From positions 1 through 51,491 of the forward strand of contig JAVRLO010000001.1 in assembly GCA_031961395.1 (NCBI GenBank): a stretch of 51,491 bases of DNA, written 5' to 3'. This DNA comes from Thermoplasmatales archaeon I-plasma. Lineage in GTDB: Archaea; Thermoplasmatota; Thermoplasmata; Thermoplasmatales; GCA-001856825. Made by a program: the position numbers and the translations under genes. Each line of letters starts with the position of its first letter. The first letter of the stretch is position 1. Below the pieces are notes generated by a model. It saw nothing but the letters and a program-made list of their open reading frames with translations. It was not told where the DNA came from and searched no databases. Shown here in pieces: positions 11,772 through 51,335 of the stretch.

Positions 11772-11921
11772 TTATTGCCCACCCCTCTTTTCCCTAGCCT
11801 TTAGTCTAAGCTCTTTACTTCCGCACTTTCTGCATTTTGTCGCTTTTATAGGGTTGGACGCATAGCAGTTCATACATATTTTCTTATTGAACAACCTATC
11901 CATTGCTTCTTTAAATGGCAT
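11772..11921 (-). CDS. rpl40e: 50S ribosomal protein L40e (eL40), not in the ORF track
   Basis: Hand translation gives [49 protein letters not shown]. It has a CxxC...CxxC zinc ribbon, and its size and basic tail are typical of archaeal L40e. Confidence 0.85.
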
Positions 11922-12081
11922 TTTATCAGTATTAGAAAGCTGTATAAATTTTCTTCTGTTCCAAAGATGGACTTCCTCCTTGTCCTTGTATAATTAATAC
12001 TCTAATTAATTTATATTCCAGATTATATCACCACACACTAAAATTTGTGATTGCAGTTATAAAATATGATTCAAAAAAACT

Positions 12082-12291
12082 ATGTATTTACAGTTAAAAC
12101 TAAATATAGATAATTTATCGCGTATTATGGAAGAGCTTCTGGTACACTTTGATATATTTCTAGATGATAAAAAATATGTGGCAAAAGTAAAAAGTGAAAT
12201 GGGTGGACTTAGAGAGTTTTCAGCAAGAAACATAGAAAAATTAATGGAACTAGTTGTGGTTGATATAAGCGAGGAATTTGAAAATCTCTAA
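12082..12291 (+). CDS. Small hypothetical protein (69 aa), possibly HicB/UPF0150-like fold
   Basis: Its TAA stop (12289-12291) lies 1 nt before the ATG of the next gene. The segment FDIFLDDKKYVAKVKSEMGGLREFSARNIEKLMELV fits the HicB-N-like pattern only loosely. Confidence 0.4.
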   Translation: MYLQLKLNIDNLSRIMEELLVHFDIFLDDKKYVAKVKSEMGGLREFSARNIEKLMELVVVDISEEFENL

Positions 12292-12292
12292 G

Positions 12293-13252
12293 ATGAAAGA
12301 TTATTATTCGGTAAGTGACATAGAACGTTTTGCTTATTGTCCATTAAATTTTTTACTGTATCTTGAAGGTGTTGATGTAAAGTCAGAAAAAGGGGAGAAC
12401 TATCATAAAAAAATTATAGATAGGCTAAGGGGAAATATACTAATAGAGAAGAGAGTTAATATTTTGAACAATGTGTTCTATGTTCTGGCTATCCTTGCAA
12501 TTGCAGCTATTTTATTCTTTTTCTATTATACAATGATCGGTTCATTGGATTACTTATTTTTGCTGTCACTTTCTATTTTTTCCATATATATTGCATCTTG
12601 GTTTTATTTACTTTCAAATTTTTTTAATTTTTCGCTGTTCAAGAAAGCGGATTCAATTATTTTGTATCTTATTTTCTTTTCACTTTTTGTCCTCTTTTTA
12701 GCGTTAATTGTTTTCAAAATAAAATACATAATTTTGCCAATTCTGATTCTAAGTTCTGATATGCTGCTATTAATCGCGGCAATAGCATACTATGCATTGT
12801 TAAAGGATATTAAAATAATAGATAAAATTCCCCAAGAAGAGAGAGATATAAAGTATATAGATAGTTACGGGTCCGAGCTTCTCAGAAGTAAGGAGTGGAG
12901 AATACAGGGCAGACCGGATATTATCGCTGAAATCAACGGAGAAATTGTTCCTATAGAAATTAAAAGCAGTAATATGCCTAAAGTAAAACCCTTTTCTCAC
13001 GTCATGCAACTCACTGCTTACTCCATACTAGTAGAAGAGAAATATGGGAGAAGAGTTTATTATGGCATCTTAAAGTATCCTCAAGGGAATATGGAGATAG
13101 AAATTGATGAAAATTTGAGGGAAACATTGAGATCTTTAATAAAAAAAATGGATATTGTTCTATCGACAATGACAGCGCACAGAAATCACAATAATCCTGG
13201 AAAATGCCAGGGTTGTTATAGGAAGGATTATTGTCCTGAGTCTCTCGTTTAA
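12293..13252 (+). CDS. Cas4-family (DUF83, PD-(D/E)xK, 4-Cys Fe-S) nuclease with an internal four-TM insertion
   Basis: N-terminal SVSDIERFAYCP and GENYH are followed by about 110 aa in four hydrophobic segments. After these come RPDIIAE...VPIEIKSS (D...ExK), QLTAYSILVEE (QxxxY) and C-terminal CQGCYRKDYC (CxxCx5C). The track start at 12278 is a TTG; ATG 12293 is preferred. Confidence 0.7.
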   Translation: MKDYYSVSDIERFAYCPLNFLLYLEGVDVKSEKGENYHKKIIDRLRGNILIEKRVNILNNVFYVLAILAIAAILFFFYYTMIGSLDYLFLLSLSIFSIYIASWFYLLSNFFNFSLFKKADSIILYLIFFSLFVLFLALIVFKIKYIILPILILSSDMLLLIAAIAYYALLKDIKIIDKIPQEERDIKYIDSYGSELLRSKEWRIQGRPDIIAEINGEIVPIEIKSSNMPKVKPFSHVMQLTAYSILVEEKYGRRVYYGILKYPQGNMEIEIDENLRETLRSLIKKMDIVLSTMTAHRNHNNPGKCQGCYRKDYCPESLV

Positions 13253-13299
13253 ATCATAATTATTTTTATTAAGAAAACATAAATAGATTAAGAGTTTTA

Positions 13300-18498: not shown

Positions 18499-20250
18499 TT
18501 ACATTCCCCCAAAGAGGTCTCTCATGAACGGATACATCTCTGTCATCTGTTCCTTACCCATCGCTTCATAGAACTGAATCACAATTCCAACAGTTAGTAA
18601 CACTCCTGTTCCAGAGGCGTTTCCTACTGTCCCAATCAAATCCGCACCAGCAGCAAGTGCTCCTACAGCGGCTCCGCTAAAGATAGTAATCGCTGGGATA
18701 TATTTATCAAGAACTCTTTTGAGTACTCTCGGATCTCTCCTGAATCCAGGTATCTGCATCCCTGAACTCTGAATCTGCCTTGCTACACCTTCTGAATTCA
18801 TGTTTGTAGTTTCTATCCAGAATTTTGCAAATAATACAGATGCACCCACCATAAATGCTACATATGCTAGAACGTGAACACCCATTTCCCACGGCGTATG
18901 ATTAAAAAGTTCTGTTTGATAAACTTGCGGACTCAGCATAGGAAATAGCCAGTTGGCTATACCATTTGGATTTGCAAGATACCAAGCAAGACCTCCTATG
19001 GGCGTAGTCTGCTGTATATTAAGCTGTTGAGCGAGAGATGCTGAAGGATACGCACCCAGAAGATAGTCGTGCCCCAAAATAGGGACTTTAGCCAGTGCAG
19101 GATTTGTCCAGAAAAGAAGTGACCACATTGCTAAATTTGCGAGAACTGCGGCTGCAAGTATGACAGGTATGTTTGATGCATACATTAACTGTATGGGGTA
19201 TCTCCCTCTAGCCCCTCTAGCTCTCTCGTGAGCAAGAGGCAACTCTACTTTCGCAGATTGAACCCATACCACCAGGAAAAATATGAATATTGTACCAGCA
19301 AGAGCTATCAATGGATTTGGCGGAGCGAATATAATTCTCTCTAGCCCCCCGGAATATAAATTCCCTGCATTAAATTGCGATAAAAGATAGAAGGTCTTTG
19401 GTAATGCACCACTCGGAGGATTAGTTATAGATAATGCACCGGATCCTGTAGGAACCCAGTTCAATGTTCCTGTTATTAATGCTTGGGAAACACCTGCAGC
19501 AATGAAAAGTGAAACACCTGACCCTATACCCCATTTTGATACGACCTCATCCATTAAGAAAACGAGATATGAACCCATGAAAAGCTGGAATATTATAAAA
19601 ATTCTAGCTATCATGAGACCATAACCAGGTATCGTTCCATTTATCGCAGATATAAATGAAGGGTCTGGCGGAAGATAACCAAAAACCTGAGGTATAGCTT
19701 CTACGAATATCATTATTATGACGAGCAATTTTTGCACACTCTGATATAACGCTTTATCGTCTGACTTAGTGAGATCTATATTAATAATCTTGGCACCTAC
19801 GAATAACTGCATTATGATACTTGCAGTAACTATAGGCCCTATGCCTAGATCCATTATCGAGCCGGCCTGCCCGGCAAAGATTGACCTGAATGAGGCAAAT
19901 ACATCTATGATCTGAGCTCTGTCCAGTCCATAAATGTATATATTGGATAGGACGAAATATATTATCAATATTAAGGCGGTCCAAAGGAATTTCTCCTTAA
20001 ATCTAACGTGTCTCCCAGGCCTTTTTACTGCAGGGAGCCTTTCAACAAGATTCTTCCATCCGTACAGCCTAGATCCTTCCCCGGTATATGATACCAGGAG
20101 ATAGGTAAGGTAATACAATGGAGCCACTGCTAATGTTACAACACCTGTATAAACCTTATTGTAATCAAAAACTCTGTAGAACAGATATACGTTCAAGAGG
20201 AATATTATCAGAATCGGAATTGCCGAGAGTCTATTCCTCTTTATTTCCAT
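18499..20250 (-). CDS. secY: Preprotein translocase subunit SecY (unusually long, 583 aa)
   Basis: The conserved core begins near residue 68 (LPAVKRPGRHVRFKEKFLWT). It is the final large gene after L15. The roughly 65 aa before the core contain two hydrophobic segments. Confidence 0.9.
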   Translation of the reverse strand: MEIKRNRLSAIPILIIFLLNVYLFYRVFDYNKVYTGVVTLAVAPLYYLTYLLVSYTGEGSRLYGWKNLVERLPAVKRPGRHVRFKEKFLWTALILIIYFVLSNIYIYGLDRAQIIDVFASFRSIFAGQAGSIMDLGIGPIVTASIIMQLFVGAKIINIDLTKSDDKALYQSVQKLLVIIMIFVEAIPQVFGYLPPDPSFISAINGTIPGYGLMIARIFIIFQLFMGSYLVFLMDEVVSKWGIGSGVSLFIAAGVSQALITGTLNWVPTGSGALSITNPPSGALPKTFYLLSQFNAGNLYSGGLERIIFAPPNPLIALAGTIFIFFLVVWVQSAKVELPLAHERARGARGRYPIQLMYASNIPVILAAAVLANLAMWSLLFWTNPALAKVPILGHDYLLGAYPSASLAQQLNIQQTTPIGGLAWYLANPNGIANWLFPMLSPQVYQTELFNHTPWEMGVHVLAYVAFMVGASVLFAKFWIETTNMNSEGVARQIQSSGMQIPGFRRDPRVLKRVLDKYIPAITIFSGAAVGALAAGADLIGTVGNASGTGVLLTVGIVIQFYEAMGKEQMTEMYPFMRDLFGGM

Positions 20251-35615: not shown

Positions 35616-36264
35616 ATGTGATCAAAGTGTATATAGGGTCTCTTGATAAAACTATTGGTATCCCAAAATCTGTTACTACTGATATACTGAAGTTCGATAC
35701 GTTCAATATTTCAAAATTTATTTTTGATAGTTTTAGCCTTCTGAGATAGTTAGCAACAAAAATATTCGCTCTTCCTTTTAATGTATCCTTGAATTTTATA
35801 AAATTTTCTTCTAACAATAAAAATACTTCTTTACCTTTTCTTTCTTCCACTAAAAATCCCAGATTTTCCAGCAATCTGATTTTCTTATTTGCATTTACTC
35901 TATTTAGATTTAAATCCTTTAAATTTATTTCATCTTTATTTAACAAGCGTGACATTATTATTTGTGAGGTACTAAAATTTAATGCATCTAAATATTTTAA
36001 TTCATTCTCCGATATTATTCCTTTTATCCAGTACTTATTTTTTCCACTATTCTGGGATAATATATTTGCGTCAGCCAATTTCCTAGTGTGCCATTCAACT
36101 GTCTTCGGATCAATTCCCAGGGATTTTGCAATATATGCGGAAGTTCTTCCCGGAACGAAACTTATGTTACTAAAAATTTTACAGACTAGTTCGTTGGATA
36201 TAACGCTTTCATCTTTCAGACCGTAATTATTATACAGCTCAATAAGAGGGTGCATATTTTTCAT
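35608..36264 (-). CDS. Hypothetical protein with two winged-helix-like segments
   Basis: 218 aa. RTSAYIAKSLGIDPKTVEWHTRKLADANIL is HTH-like, and a second segment, IRLLENLGFLVEERKGKEVF, follows. It overlaps the xerA stop by 26 nt and the rpiA start by 8 nt. Confidence 0.45.
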   Translation of the reverse strand: MKNMHPLIELYNNYGLKDESVISNELVCKIFSNISFVPGRTSAYIAKSLGIDPKTVEWHTRKLADANILSQNSGKNKYWIKGIISENELKYLDALNFSTSQIIMSRLLNKDEINLKDLNLNRVNANKKIRLLENLGFLVEERKGKEVFLLLEENFIKFKDTLKGRANIFVANYLRRLKLSKINFEILNVSNFSISVVTDFGIPIVLSRDPIYTLITYG

Positions 36265-37102
36265 AACTCCTTCTCAATGATCCATCGTCAACGTGAGTGT
36301 ATATTTGAGTGGTACTTATACTTGCGTGCCCTAATAATATTTGAATGATTCTTATATCGGCTCCATTTCTTAATAAAGTTGTAGCAAAAGTATGCCTTAA
36401 AACGTGTGGAGTGACTTTCTTATTTATTCCTGCCCTTTTTGCAGCATTACGTATAATCCTTTCTACAGTTACTGAAGAGATTCTTCTGCTTTTGTTGGTT
36501 GGAAATAGGAATTCACTTTTTATCTTGTTTTCCTTTCTCTCTAAAAGATATTTTTTAATGTCAGGGATTATTTTCTCACTGAATATTACGAGCCTATCCT
36601 TGTCACCTTTTCCTCCCCTTATTTTAAGAGATTTATTTTCGAGGTCAATGTCATTTATTCTTATTGAACATAATTCGGAAACTCTTACGCCTGTATATGC
36701 TAGAAGTTCAACTATTAATCTTTCTTTGCTGTTCCTGCAGCTCCCTAACATTTTAGATACTTCCTGTTCAACAAGATAATTTGGGACTTTCTGAGCTCTC
36801 TTCGGAGGATTAAGGGGTCCTAAATCTTTAATCTCTAGAAAATCAAATAATGATTGCAAAGCTCTAATATATAGATAAACAGAAGCTTTAGAATAACCTA
36901 GATCAATGCTCAAATATTCCTTAAAATCCTCTATGTTTTTCCTTGAAATCTTAGTTTTGTCATAGTTAATGAATTCGAGATATTTTTGTGCTATGTATCC
37001 ATACATTTTAACTGTATTTTTGCTCTTTCCATTCGCATATAACCTATTTTTAAACTGTTCTGGAATACTACTATCAACTTTATTTTCCAATGTGGATTCC
37101 AT
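36239..37102 (-). CDS. xerA: Tyrosine recombinase XerA (XerC/D family)
   Basis: 287 aa with an N-terminal SAM-like core-binding domain. The catalytic residues are in YTGVRVSEL (R), HVLRHTFAT (HxxR) and LLGHASISTTQIYTHV (H...Y). Confidence 0.85.
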   Translation of the reverse strand: MESTLENKVDSSIPEQFKNRLYANGKSKNTVKMYGYIAQKYLEFINYDKTKISRKNIEDFKEYLSIDLGYSKASVYLYIRALQSLFDFLEIKDLGPLNPPKRAQKVPNYLVEQEVSKMLGSCRNSKERLIVELLAYTGVRVSELCSIRINDIDLENKSLKIRGGKGDKDRLVIFSEKIIPDIKKYLLERKENKIKSEFLFPTNKSRRISSVTVERIIRNAAKRAGINKKVTPHVLRHTFATTLLRNGADIRIIQILLGHASISTTQIYTHVDDGSLRRSYEKYAPSY

Positions 37103-49748: not shown

Positions 49749-51335
49749 TTATGCACCTCCAATTGACCCTTTCTTTACCTCTTTTCTTACTTCTGCGCTG
49801 AGACGGCCCAGTTCTTCTTTTTCTCTGTTTACAAATCTAAAAAATGGCCTTACCGATGGATTTACCTCGGTTACTTTGTCCATTATTTTCCAGCTTATCT
49901 CTCTTAGATCGAAATGAGCCTGAGGAGTTGATCTGAGCTCAGTCATATATATTATTTCCCGCAGATTGGAAGTAAAAATTACAGGATATTTATATCCAAA
50001 CGGAACCACATATTGCGCTATAAATGGATCTATATCTTTCAATTTATTATACAATCTTTTTGCTTCCTCCATTCTTGACCTGTAAATAGATAATAAATTA
50101 TTTTCATTGAGGATTGTCGGAGGTATTTCGTATCCAAAGTTAGTACTGAGCAATTTTCTTTGCAACGAAAGCAGTCTATGCCTTTGTAATTCCCTAAAAG
50201 CTCCAAAATTTGTTAAGACCTCAAAAGTATAATTCACGTGTTCTAGACTCCTGTCAGGTTTATGCCGCCTATTATTTCTCGTTGATGATATTTCTTCAAT
50301 CATTTTTCTCCTTTCCTCTGCTTTCATTGCTATCACATTTTTTTCTATTTCATTGTATAAACCTTCACTCCTCTCAAAATAGAAGGAAGTAAGTATTGAT
50401 AAAACCGCGTTATCATCGTTCTCATAATTCAATATTTTAACGAGCTCGTTGTTATCATTGCTTATGTCTTTGAAGTAATCCTCCTTCAAATATATTGGTA
50501 AGTTTCTAATCTTTCTCAAGTATTCTATGGTCGAAATTCCATATTGGGATTCGACAGAATCAATTAGCTTAGGGAAAATTCCTTTCATTTCCTTTAGTAG
50601 TTCTTCGTATAGCCAAATAGATTCACTTGAATTTATAGATTTTAATCTTTCCAGTAAGTGGGCAAATGCTCTAGCATTCCCACTTATCCCAATGTTAGTT
50701 AATGTGGACGCCGGAAGAATAAACCTTGCCTCGTCCAAAGCTCTGCTCCTTATTGAAGTTTCATATGATTTTGTTAAAATTTTATCTGTTTCAGAATCCT
50801 TTCCTAGCATCAGTTTTTCACCATTAGGCATCTTAAAATTTGCATTTTCAATAGGATAAATTTCCTTTAGTCTGACTATCAGTTCCTTTCTGATCTTCGA
50901 ATAATCACTGAAAGATTCATCACAGTATTGAATATACTGTTCATATAAATTATTAGGGATTCCTATCCTTTCTGGGTCCGCATAGAGATATTTTGAATTT
51001 ATTTTATTATCGTAATACACGTATCTAGAACTTTTCTCGAGATATGATAACCCTATTCTACCCTCCTCAATAATTTTAGAGAGGATATTGCTAACATTCT
51101 GGATCCCTACCTGAGCAGTGACAAGTTCAGAAATTGATTCGTCTCCATATTCTAAAAAAATTAACTCATAAAAATGTTCACCTTTGTTTTCTTCCCCGGA
51201 AAATTCCCTATCCCACAATTTTCTCAAGTCAACCTCAGCTGTCCTACTGTATCTTGACATCAATGCACCCCTGTCTATCATTTTTGGAAGATTTATTATG
51301 AATACATCCCTGTCTCTATTAGAAAAATATTCCAT
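49749..51335 (-). CDS. ThyX-like (Thy1 domain) protein, double-length form
   Basis: 528 aa. The C-terminal half carries ELQRHRLLSLQR, which resembles the ThyX RHRxxS motif. The N-terminal half has SRYSRT and YGDESISEL blocks, suggesting a degenerate second Thy1-like module. Confidence 0.5.
   Translation of the reverse strand: MEYFSNRDRDVFIINLPKMIDRGALMSRYSRTAEVDLRKLWDREFSGEENKGEHFYELIFLEYGDESISELVTAQVGIQNVSNILSKIIEEGRIGLSYLEKSSRYVYYDNKINSKYLYADPERIGIPNNLYEQYIQYCDESFSDYSKIRKELIVRLKEIYPIENANFKMPNGEKLMLGKDSETDKILTKSYETSIRSRALDEARFILPASTLTNIGISGNARAFAHLLERLKSINSSESIWLYEELLKEMKGIFPKLIDSVESQYGISTIEYLRKIRNLPIYLKEDYFKDISNDNNELVKILNYENDDNAVLSILTSFYFERSEGLYNEIEKNVIAMKAEERRKMIEEISSTRNNRRHKPDRSLEHVNYTFEVLTNFGAFRELQRHRLLSLQRKLLSTNFGYEIPPTILNENNLLSIYRSRMEEAKRLYNKLKDIDPFIAQYVVPFGYKYPVIFTSNLREIIYMTELRSTPQAHFDLREISWKIMDKVTEVNPSVRPFFRFVNREKEELGRLSAEVRKEVKKGSIGGA

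Follow-up and report, generated by a model that had tools for sequence, protein, structure and literature searches.

The 51,491-nt stretch of Thermoplasmatales archaeon I-plasma analysed here (contig JAVRLO010000001.1, hereafter the window) contains a gene, which we call Cas4TM, whose product is predicted to be a Cas4-family [4Fe-4S] PD-(D/E)xK DNA nuclease integral to the membrane. The Cas4 domain of this protein is split by a conserved block of four transmembrane (TM) helices, and relatives of the same design are found across the archaeal phylum Thermoplasmatota. We consider this architecture to be real, conserved and apparently undescribed, and its function is one that we infer. That the architecture, the cytoplasmic topology and the independence from CRISPR are as described below is, in our judgement, very probable. 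Coordinates of the gene, its parts and the adjacent features are collected in Table 1.

Exactly four cysteines were found in the 319-aa product, C16 (nt 12338-12340) and C305, C308 and C314 (nt 13205-13234), together with a GENYH motif containing H38 (nt 12404-12406), D209 (nt 12917-12919), E222 and K224 (nt 12956-12964), and Q239xxxY243. The protein matched the NCBIfam model TIGR00372 (cas4; 79.4 bits against a cutoff of 65) and the Pfam families PF01930 (Cas_Cas4; 5.9e-13, 49.6 bits against a cutoff of 22.7) and PF12705 (PDDEXK_1; 6.9e-13, above cutoff), with the Pfam and NCBIfam matches spanning residues 196-315; two further Pfam matches at E <= 1 were weak and sub-threshold. Every PADLOC Cas4 model also matched (1e-21 to 1e-23, best 7.5e-23), and the PADLOC matches of the nuclease were to Cas4/DruK-type nuclease models only. 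The Cas4 profile matches started at approximately position 53-60 of the models, since the hydrophobic block separates the N-terminal third of the Cas4 domain from the rest. When residues 1-48 were joined directly to residues 181-319, the resulting TM-deleted sequence (187 aa) matched TIGR00372 over positions 2-179 of 180 at 84.8 bits. The initial annotation had proposed profile searches of residues ~180-319 and 1-60 as a check: the C-terminal part was recognised by PF01930 and TIGR00372, residues 1-60 alone had no NCBIfam match, and the N-terminal segment is supported by the spliced-sequence and profile alignments only.

Comparisons with solved Cas4 proteins gave the same picture. A profile of 18 TM-deleted family members aligned end to end with the I-C Cas4 (8D3L chain I, residues 8-202, E = 2.8e-8), and also with the Geobacter Cas4/Cas1 fusion (7MI4). 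In the alignments to solved Cas4 proteins, YCP (C16) was placed on the first cluster cysteine, GExxH (H38) on the metal-binding histidine, CxxCx5C on the C-terminal triad, and ExK and QxxxY on the matching residues; in the profile alignment with SSO0001 (4IC1), D209 of GRPD was placed on the Asp of GRAD. The Cas4/DUF83 hallmarks had earlier been read from the letters in their canonical order, and all of them are indeed present and occupy homologous columns of the solved proteins. Across 98 homologues, C16, C305, C308, C314, K224 and Y243 are invariant, and H38, D209, E222 and Q239 each reach at least 90% conservation. A family-specific motif, HRNH (H296-R-N-H299), located just N-terminal of the C-terminal cysteines, is also invariant in the 98 homologues and is missing from SSO0001. 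The AlphaFold2 model computed from these 98 sequences had a mean predicted local distance difference test score (pLDDT) of 82.8 and a predicted template-modelling score of 0.76, with the nuclease pieces at pLDDT 83-98. The top Foldseek matches in the PDB were the Cas4 subunits of the I-C and I-G Cas4-Cas1-Cas2 complexes, followed by MGME1, ACE1 and Pcal_0546. Because the cluster cysteines and the catalytic residues are conserved in 98 sequences, the nuclease looks like an active, cluster-binding Cas4-type enzyme.

The insertion was supported by several readings of the protein. A 19-residue Kyte-Doolittle scan showed uninterrupted hydrophobicity over approximately residues 54-176, hydropathy averaged over the 98 homologues resolved four hydrophobic segments (~62-80, 86-104, 122-141 and 145-167), and helices were modelled by AlphaFold2 at residues 32-80, 86-110, 113-141 and 147-177. 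The family hydropathy and the modelled helices agree with the ~110 aa of four strongly hydrophobic segments that had been noted from the sequence. In the model, the helix that carries His38 continues into TM1 and TM4 extends towards the core, and the bundle is predicted to sit between the catalytic core and the N-terminal helices that bear Cys16 and His38. Comparison of the two hairpins by hhalign showed them to be homologous (probability 98.6%, E 9.7e-16); their first helices share E..(V/I)L.FA..AT, and their second helices read SLIWLLAA.FLY and AL.WLIGAS.FLY, respectively. The four-helix block therefore reads as a tandem duplication of a two-helix hairpin. The TM helices come close to the enzyme in conservation, with a mean pairwise identity of 40-50% against 58% in the core. 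The conserved helix sequences, with their small-residue and Trp motifs, suggest that the bundle does more than anchor the protein and makes specific contacts, through packing, oligomerisation or binding of a membrane partner. As to composition, Phe, Ile, Leu and Tyr are very abundant in the TM helices of the window protein, as fits the 36% G+C of the window, and five otherwise near-invariant helix positions of the family (within 12473-12796) are changed in the window clade: E59 to N, G76 to F, W97 to S, W158 to L and G161 to I.

The distribution of charged residues indicates on which side of the membrane the nuclease lies. The mean number of Lys plus Arg in the family is 3.35 before TM1, 0.56 in loop 1-2, 2.98 in loop 2-3, 0.27 in loop 3-4 and 5.01 after TM4, and the hairpin tips are short and acidic, with a loop 1-2 of 6-7 residues. 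This positive-inside pattern predicts a cytoplasmic location for the two nuclease pieces and the central loop, with only the two hairpin tips outside. The number of helices is even, and therefore both halves would lie on one side of the membrane and can form one Cas4 domain. The initial annotation had argued from the even helix count that the two groups of cysteines are kept on the same side, an argument with which the charge pattern and the variants of two, four and about eight helices described below agree.

The family to which Cas4TM belongs is large. Nine full-length relatives of 319-342 aa, with identity down to 30%, came from an indexed protein search; a profile search recovered relatives in 210 protein clusters, and 233 clusters (50% identity) reached E <= 1e-30 when HMMER was run exhaustively over 1.84 billion representatives. 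The N-termini of the homologues are consistent with ATG 12293 as the start of the nuclease. A pattern-seeded scan with one genome per GTDB species recovered at least 229 species whose genomes encode a relative, and all of the 80 listed among these 229, to which the counts over 80 loci given below refer, are Thermoplasmatota or have archaeal labels consistent with this phylum (Thermoplasmata, Methanomassiliicoccales, DHVE2, haloalkaliphilic 'plasmas' and metagenome-assembled genomes (MAGs) labelled 'Methanobacteriota archaeon'). In databases, members are named 'CRISPR-associated protein Cas4', 'Dna2/Cas4 domain-containing' or 'PD-(D/E)XK nuclease family protein'. An assembly or fusion artefact was considered and rejected, since 229 species genomes and, besides nine close clusters, more than 200 distant ones share the architecture; the earlier view that the insertion is no artefact is borne out by this conservation.

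Sister architectures further show that the insertion is modular. Proteins of ~260-290 aa contain one two-helix hairpin (P0206, P0229, P0225 and P0263, 261-276 aa), those of ~320-360 aa contain four helices as in the window protein, and those of 407-645 aa contain ~6-10 helices by a crude count (P0071, P0101, P0230 with 499 aa, and P0234 with 407 aa). In the 554-560-aa proteins of the last form (P0071 and P0101), about eight helices are arranged as four hairpin repeats. The hairpin is thus found in one, two or four copies (~2, 4 and 8 helices), and intermediate lengths suggest a form with ~6 by the crude count; the internal insertions inspected by eye all have an even number of helices, and the longer forms have 6-10 by crude count. 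The named members of the 407-645-aa form are Thermoplasmata, and the 407-aa form includes a marine Thermoplasmata MAG from Tara Oceans. A further, sizeable group of ~170-182 aa (P0267, P0282, P0265 and ~35 further representatives) has the C-terminal Cys triad but not the N-terminal Cys/His segment, and carries a single TM helix at the N-terminus. The gene for P0267 (L093:5001-5543) lies among YkuD, Rex-like, SSB and MoaA genes in a bacterial-looking housekeeping context, and from this one context it appears that membrane-anchored Cas4-like nucleases may not be confined to archaea.

No link to CRISPR or to mobile elements was observed. Scans of the window for tandem or CRISPR-like arrays and for Rfam families were negative, and no cas gene was found among the 36 window products scanned with Pfam, bar the Cas4-like gene itself; the array scan and the Pfam scan agree with the initial annotation, which had seen neither cas genes nor repeats in the 51 kb. 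At 94 related loci, no CRISPR-like array was found within +/-8 kb, and no cas family was present among the recurrent neighbour clusters. Defence genes were likewise missing among the neighbours (Pfam, neighbour clusters and PADLOC), and none of the 2.9 million IMG/VR viral contigs contained a relative of the nuclease. A viral or mobile origin was therefore rejected, the PADLOC matches being confined to Cas4/DruK-type models. Cas4TM behaves like a chromosomal gene that occupies stable positions within lineages and not like a mobile defence or cas gene, and these positions are consistent with vertical inheritance.

We consider it reasonably probable, from the analysis as a whole, that Cas4TM is a DNA nuclease confined to the membrane, where it acts on DNA. 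The best overall explanation that we can offer, and one that we would place just short of probable, is a tethered Cas4-type nuclease that cuts DNA at the inner membrane face. The tether would keep a DNA-end nuclease that is otherwise non-specific at the inner membrane surface, where it would meet only DNA that appears there, and the nucleoid would be spared through its distance from the membrane nuclease. The likeliest substrate would be linear DNA entering the cell, whether viral, transferred or taken up, which may be nicked or resected. That Cas4TM acts specifically on incoming DNA is a tentative proposal; cleavage at entry is suggested because the membrane tether of the bacterial protein SNIPE spares self DNA and cuts injected DNA. 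A bolder proposal, which we think unlikely as a whole, is that the hairpin-inserted Cas4 proteins of Thermoplasmatota and the single-helix ~180-aa relatives together represent a class of integral-membrane DNA nucleases so far unrecognised, in which conserved helical bundles dock onto or help to form a DNA entry route and the cytoplasmic Cas4 domain cuts or resects the entering DNA. If this were true, it would provide a constitutive, sequence-independent and position-based discrimination between foreign DNA and the chromosome, or a processing of imported DNA, and in archaea this mechanism would be conserved throughout the phylum.

Several observations weigh against cleavage of entering DNA, or against parts of the picture on which it is built. 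The helices were modelled with a pLDDT of only 56-73. Because several TM residues conserved in the family have been lost in the window clade (W97, W158 and G76 among them), the bundle in the window organism may be little more than an anchor under constraint relaxed in this lineage. The taxonomic picture rests on pattern-seeded scans and on MAG labels. Stable housekeeping-type positions throughout the phylum are unusual for an antiviral gene and fit a housekeeping role as well or better. The linkage to a TPD-domain gene, described next, points to chromosome metabolism and not to DNA entry.

Gene-context analysis bears most directly on the strongest alternative, in which Cas4TM is a housekeeping genome-maintenance nuclease that trims or resolves chromosomal DNA contacting the membrane, at sites of segregation or division or at repair foci, often together with a TPD/CDIN1-like nuclease. 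Synteny with the window did not extend beyond the five closest genomes (L001-L005). Genes that recurred near the nuclease in the set of 80 loci were a convergent GlmS gene (40 loci), a GlmU-like gene (31) and, in halophilic clades, an upstream MtnA gene (11). A TPD-domain gene (PF14811, 1.4e-43) was located directly upstream and on the same strand at 31 of the 73 loci with at least 1 kb of upstream sequence, most of them labelled Methanomassiliicoccales (for example L037:7014-7946 (+), L008, L017, L023, L042 and L064), and the TPD gene and the membrane Cas4 look like a conserved two-nuclease operon. TPD is a domain of human CDIN1/C15orf41, which is regarded as a Holliday-junction-resolvase-like nuclease by prediction and whose archaeal orthologues are restricted to Euryarchaeota (PMC7092493). 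The phylum-wide presence of the gene, its conserved positions beside core genes, the recurrent TPD partner, and the lack of defence neighbours and viral copies all fit a maintenance role. However, tblastn found no TPD gene within the 51 kb of the window, and the neighbourhoods vary by clade (GlmS, MtnA or the small open reading frame (ORF) discussed below), with no single conserved operon. Within L001-L005, moreover, the nuclease has evolved faster than its neighbours (36-73% identity to the window, against 55-83% for CysS and NAPRT). To our knowledge, a membrane nuclease is not required by any known archaeal repair pathway. Cleavage of incoming DNA is thus favoured, tentatively, and chromosome maintenance together with the TPD nuclease comes second, as a less likely but serious alternative.

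The family resemblance to CRISPR-linked proteins raises a further alternative, that Cas4TM serves CRISPR adaptation in trans by trimming prespacers for a distant Cas1-Cas2, with the membrane biasing capture to entering DNA. The score above the TIGR00372 'equivalog' cutoff, the strong PADLOC Cas4 matches, the best structure and sequence matches to Cas4 subunits of Cas4-Cas1-Cas2 complexes, and the database label 'CRISPR-associated protein Cas4' are all in its favour. Set against these are the lack of arrays and cas neighbours in the window and at the 94 related loci, and the HRNH motif and TM bundle, both of which are missing from the aligned CRISPR-linked Cas4 proteins. Solo Cas4 genes, moreover, occur commonly and as a rule have no tie to adaptation (PMC5704561). 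We regard a role in adaptation as improbable.

The gene immediately upstream of the nuclease was compared in the same manner, as the initial annotation had proposed a two-gene module with a small, HicB/UPF0150-like acidic partner of 69 aa. The small protein is real and acidic (13 D/E against 7 K/R), and its length is 54 aa: all orthologues start at the codon equivalent to ATG 12127, and the 15 extra codons from ATG 12082 that give the 69-aa reading are unconserved. Its AlphaFold2 model has a beta-beta-beta-alpha fold at pLDDT 94.9. The HicB assignment was rejected, as no Pfam, NCBIfam or PADLOC match was found at permissive thresholds and no Foldseek PDB match was significant (best E = 0.039); the weak matches were double-stranded RNA-binding domain-like and not HicB. 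A profile search for the small protein returned 55 clusters, of which all organism-named ones are Thermoplasmatota, including Aciduliprofundum AciM339_0164 and a Picrophilus protein.

Comparisons of the loci that carry the small ORF showed varied downstream neighbours. In the window clade and in the distant L055/L092 clade, the neighbour is the membrane nuclease. In Aciduliprofundum and relatives (DHVE2-type), it is an overlapping gene for a 115-127-aa soluble protein, followed by a convergent 171-aa gene; in L085 and L089 it is a 122-147-aa polytopic membrane protein; and in Picrophilus and L090 the small ORF has no coupled gene (loci elsewhere include L081:4001-4599, L087:4001-4515, L091:3001-3515, L085:4001-4539 and L089:3001-3620). 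The 115-aa, 171-aa and 122-147-aa neighbour proteins had no Pfam or PADLOC match. The small membrane proteins of L085 and L089 were tried as homologues of the nuclease hairpins and rejected, real sequences scoring no better than shuffled ones. A six-frame hidden Markov model search placed the small ORF beside the nuclease at only 6 of the 80 loci (L001-L005 and L055). L092, outside this set, also carries the pair, and DHVE2 genomes encode both proteins, unlinked where seen.

These data leave a two-gene defence or toxin-antitoxin-like module, in which the small acidic protein would regulate or inhibit the nuclease, very improbable. The pair does have features expected of a unit: one base separates the TAA of the small ORF from the ATG at 12293 (re-reading gave the same coordinates as the initial annotation), the sequence between them has no T-rich stretch that could act as a terminator, the pair recurs in L001-L005 and in the distant L055 and L092, where the nuclease is only ~33% identical, and the small protein is strongly constrained and folds confidently. 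In the window lineage, the 1-nt spacing, the lack of an intervening T-tract and the T-run after 13252 indicate that the two genes are co-transcribed. However, the linkage is rare, the small protein is found with unrelated 115-aa or small membrane proteins or alone elsewhere, and no antitoxin or defence profile was matched. In L001-L005, it is also more conserved than the nuclease (72-91% against 36-73%, with CysS at 56-75%), the reverse of a typical antitoxin or immunity partner. Because the small ORF pairs with other genes elsewhere and most of the nucleases have other neighbours, the small protein is an independent, widely conserved protein and not an obligate subunit, dedicated partner or antitoxin.

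Many Thermoplasmatota lack a rigid wall, which makes surface enzymes plausible, and Fe-S clusters can act as redox sensors; an outward-facing nuclease scavenging environmental DNA, or a catalytically dead membrane Fe-S sensor, is nevertheless hardly credible, given that Lys and Arg are enriched on the nuclease side and depleted in the 6-7-residue hairpin tips, that a split Fe-S domain is unlikely to assemble outside the cell, and that the catalytic residues are conserved across 98 sequences.

Table 1 Features of the Cas4TM locus, with positions in the window.
Feature	Position	Strand	Basis or remark
Cas4TM coding sequence (membrane-inserted Cas4-family nuclease)	12293..13252	+	319 aa + TAA stop; ORF/translation, profile matches
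N-terminal nuclease piece, residues 1-48	12293..12436	+	Cys16, His38; pLDDT 88-95
Inserted four-helix TM block, residues ~58-170	12464..12802	+	hydropathy, AlphaFold2, hairpin duplication, charge counts
TM1	12473-12532	+	
TM2	12551-12610	+	
TM3	12656-12715	+	
TM4	12734-12796	+	
PD-(D/E)xK core and C-terminal cluster motif, residues 181-319	12833..13249	+	pLDDT mostly 83-98
Small conserved acidic protein, 54 aa (MEELLVHF...ENL)	12127..12291	+	stop TAA 12289-12291
A/T-rich intergenic region, L40e gene to small ORF	11922..12126	no strand	read from sequence
Ribosomal protein L40e gene, divergent from small ORF	11772-11921	minus	Pfam identity
T-rich stretch TTATTTTTATTA shortly 3' of nuclease stop	13260..13271	+	read from sequence

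The intergenic region upstream of the small ORF contains a TATA-like AAATATAG at ~12102-12109, and the promoter of the transcript of the small ORF and the nuclease presumably lies within this region. The T-rich stretch 3' of the nuclease is a possible archaeal oligo-T terminator. The window is part of the core chromosome: apart from the nuclease, the 36 window products scanned are ordinary cellular genes, including the L3-to-L15 ribosomal-protein operon with SecY, adenylate and cytidylate kinases, Cbf5, CysS, nicotinamidase, NAPRT, pyroglutamyl peptidase, L40e, a GFO/IDH/MocA oxidoreductase, an Na+/H+ exchanger, RNR, RpiA, a Xer-type recombinase and ThyX. The recombinase, a tyrosine recombinase at 36242-37102 (-) (Phage_integrase, 7.4e-49) located among metabolic genes, is probably chromosomal and Xer-type and not a sign of a mobile element. 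Two gene calls in the window deserve attention. The ORF at 49752-51335 (-) encodes 528 aa, about twice the usual length of ThyX, and matched ThyX (PF02511) in two stretches, the best at residues 333-493; it may be duplicated or fused, or its start may be called too far upstream. The SecY ORF at 18502-20250 (-), 583 aa as called, shows the plug domain only from residue 96, so either the true start is downstream or the protein has an N-terminal extension; it is 86-95% identical in L001-L005.

Cas4-family nucleases, among them many 'solo' copies, have been known as soluble proteins. Here, one solo-Cas4 lineage appears to have been built into the membrane and kept across a whole archaeal phylum, in a design constrained by an even number of helices, by cluster ligands on either side of the insertion and by conserved helix motifs. 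Location-restricted DNA cleavage is a concrete hypothesis for at least one solo-Cas4 role and, if true, would extend to archaea the use of membrane tethering for self/non-self discrimination, so far shown only for SNIPE. The label 'CRISPR-associated protein Cas4' is misleading in CRISPR surveys of Thermoplasmatota MAGs, and the recurrent pairing with CDIN1/TPD offers a handle on a poorly understood, disease-linked family.

To place Cas4TM among described systems, we compared it with the proteins most similar in fold or in working principle. The CRISPR Cas4 proteins (TIGR00372/PF01930; SSO0001 4IC1, Pcal_0546 4R5Q, 8D3L and 7MI4) share the fold and all signature residues. They are compact soluble domains of ~160-220 aa, whereas Cas4TM is a polytopic protein of 319 aa, in which the domain is split by a conserved TM block of ~113 residues and the HRNH motif is added; in contrast to the Cas4 of CRISPR adaptation, it has no cas1, cas2 or array nearby, in the window or at the 94 related loci. 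With solo-Cas4 (Hudaiberdiev et al. 2017, PMC5704561), it shares the occurrence of a Cas4-family gene outside CRISPR-cas loci and mobile elements. The described solo-Cas4 proteins are soluble, whereas the Cas4TM family is polytopic and confined to one phylum, and transmembrane forms are not mentioned in that phylogenomic survey. The Solo-Cas4 of M. mazei is reported to bind a [4Fe-4S] cluster and to cleave double-stranded DNA with Mn2+ or Mg2+, and overexpression of this soluble protein is reported to slow growth (PMC12501428). Among the structural matches, ACE1 (Argonaute-associated), the Fe-S domains of AddB, AdnA and RecB, and MGME1 have the same Cas4/RecB-like fold and are non-CRISPR, but they are soluble, belong to helicase-nuclease machines or are partnered with Argonaute, and none of them has a TM insertion. 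The initial annotation knew of no described system with this architecture, and neither the Cas4 phylogenomics paper nor the searchable full-text literature yielded a description of a membrane-inserted Cas4.

Outside the archaeal family, the proteins most closely related to the nuclease core are the ~180-aa one-helix proteins (P0267, P0282 and P0265; ~145-156 bits), for which the searchable literature likewise gave no description. They share with Cas4TM the HR.H motif, the C-terminal Cys triad and the anchoring in the membrane, but their anchor is N-terminal and not an internal insertion, and they have only three cluster cysteines. The closest parallel in working principle is SNIPE of E. coli, which consists of one N-terminal TM helix, a DUF4041 domain and a GIY-YIG nuclease; without the TM helix SNIPE is toxic, and the tethered form cuts only phage DNA, during injection (bioRxiv 10.1101/2025.11.03.685801). 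Neither DUF4041 nor GIY-YIG was found in Cas4TM by the Pfam scan at E <= 1. What the two share is the principle of a membrane-anchored, cytoplasmic DNA nuclease only; the proteins are unrelated, and SNIPE is a bacterial anti-phage defence, whereas Cas4TM is found phylum-wide in a housekeeping context, with its Cas4 domain split by four helices.

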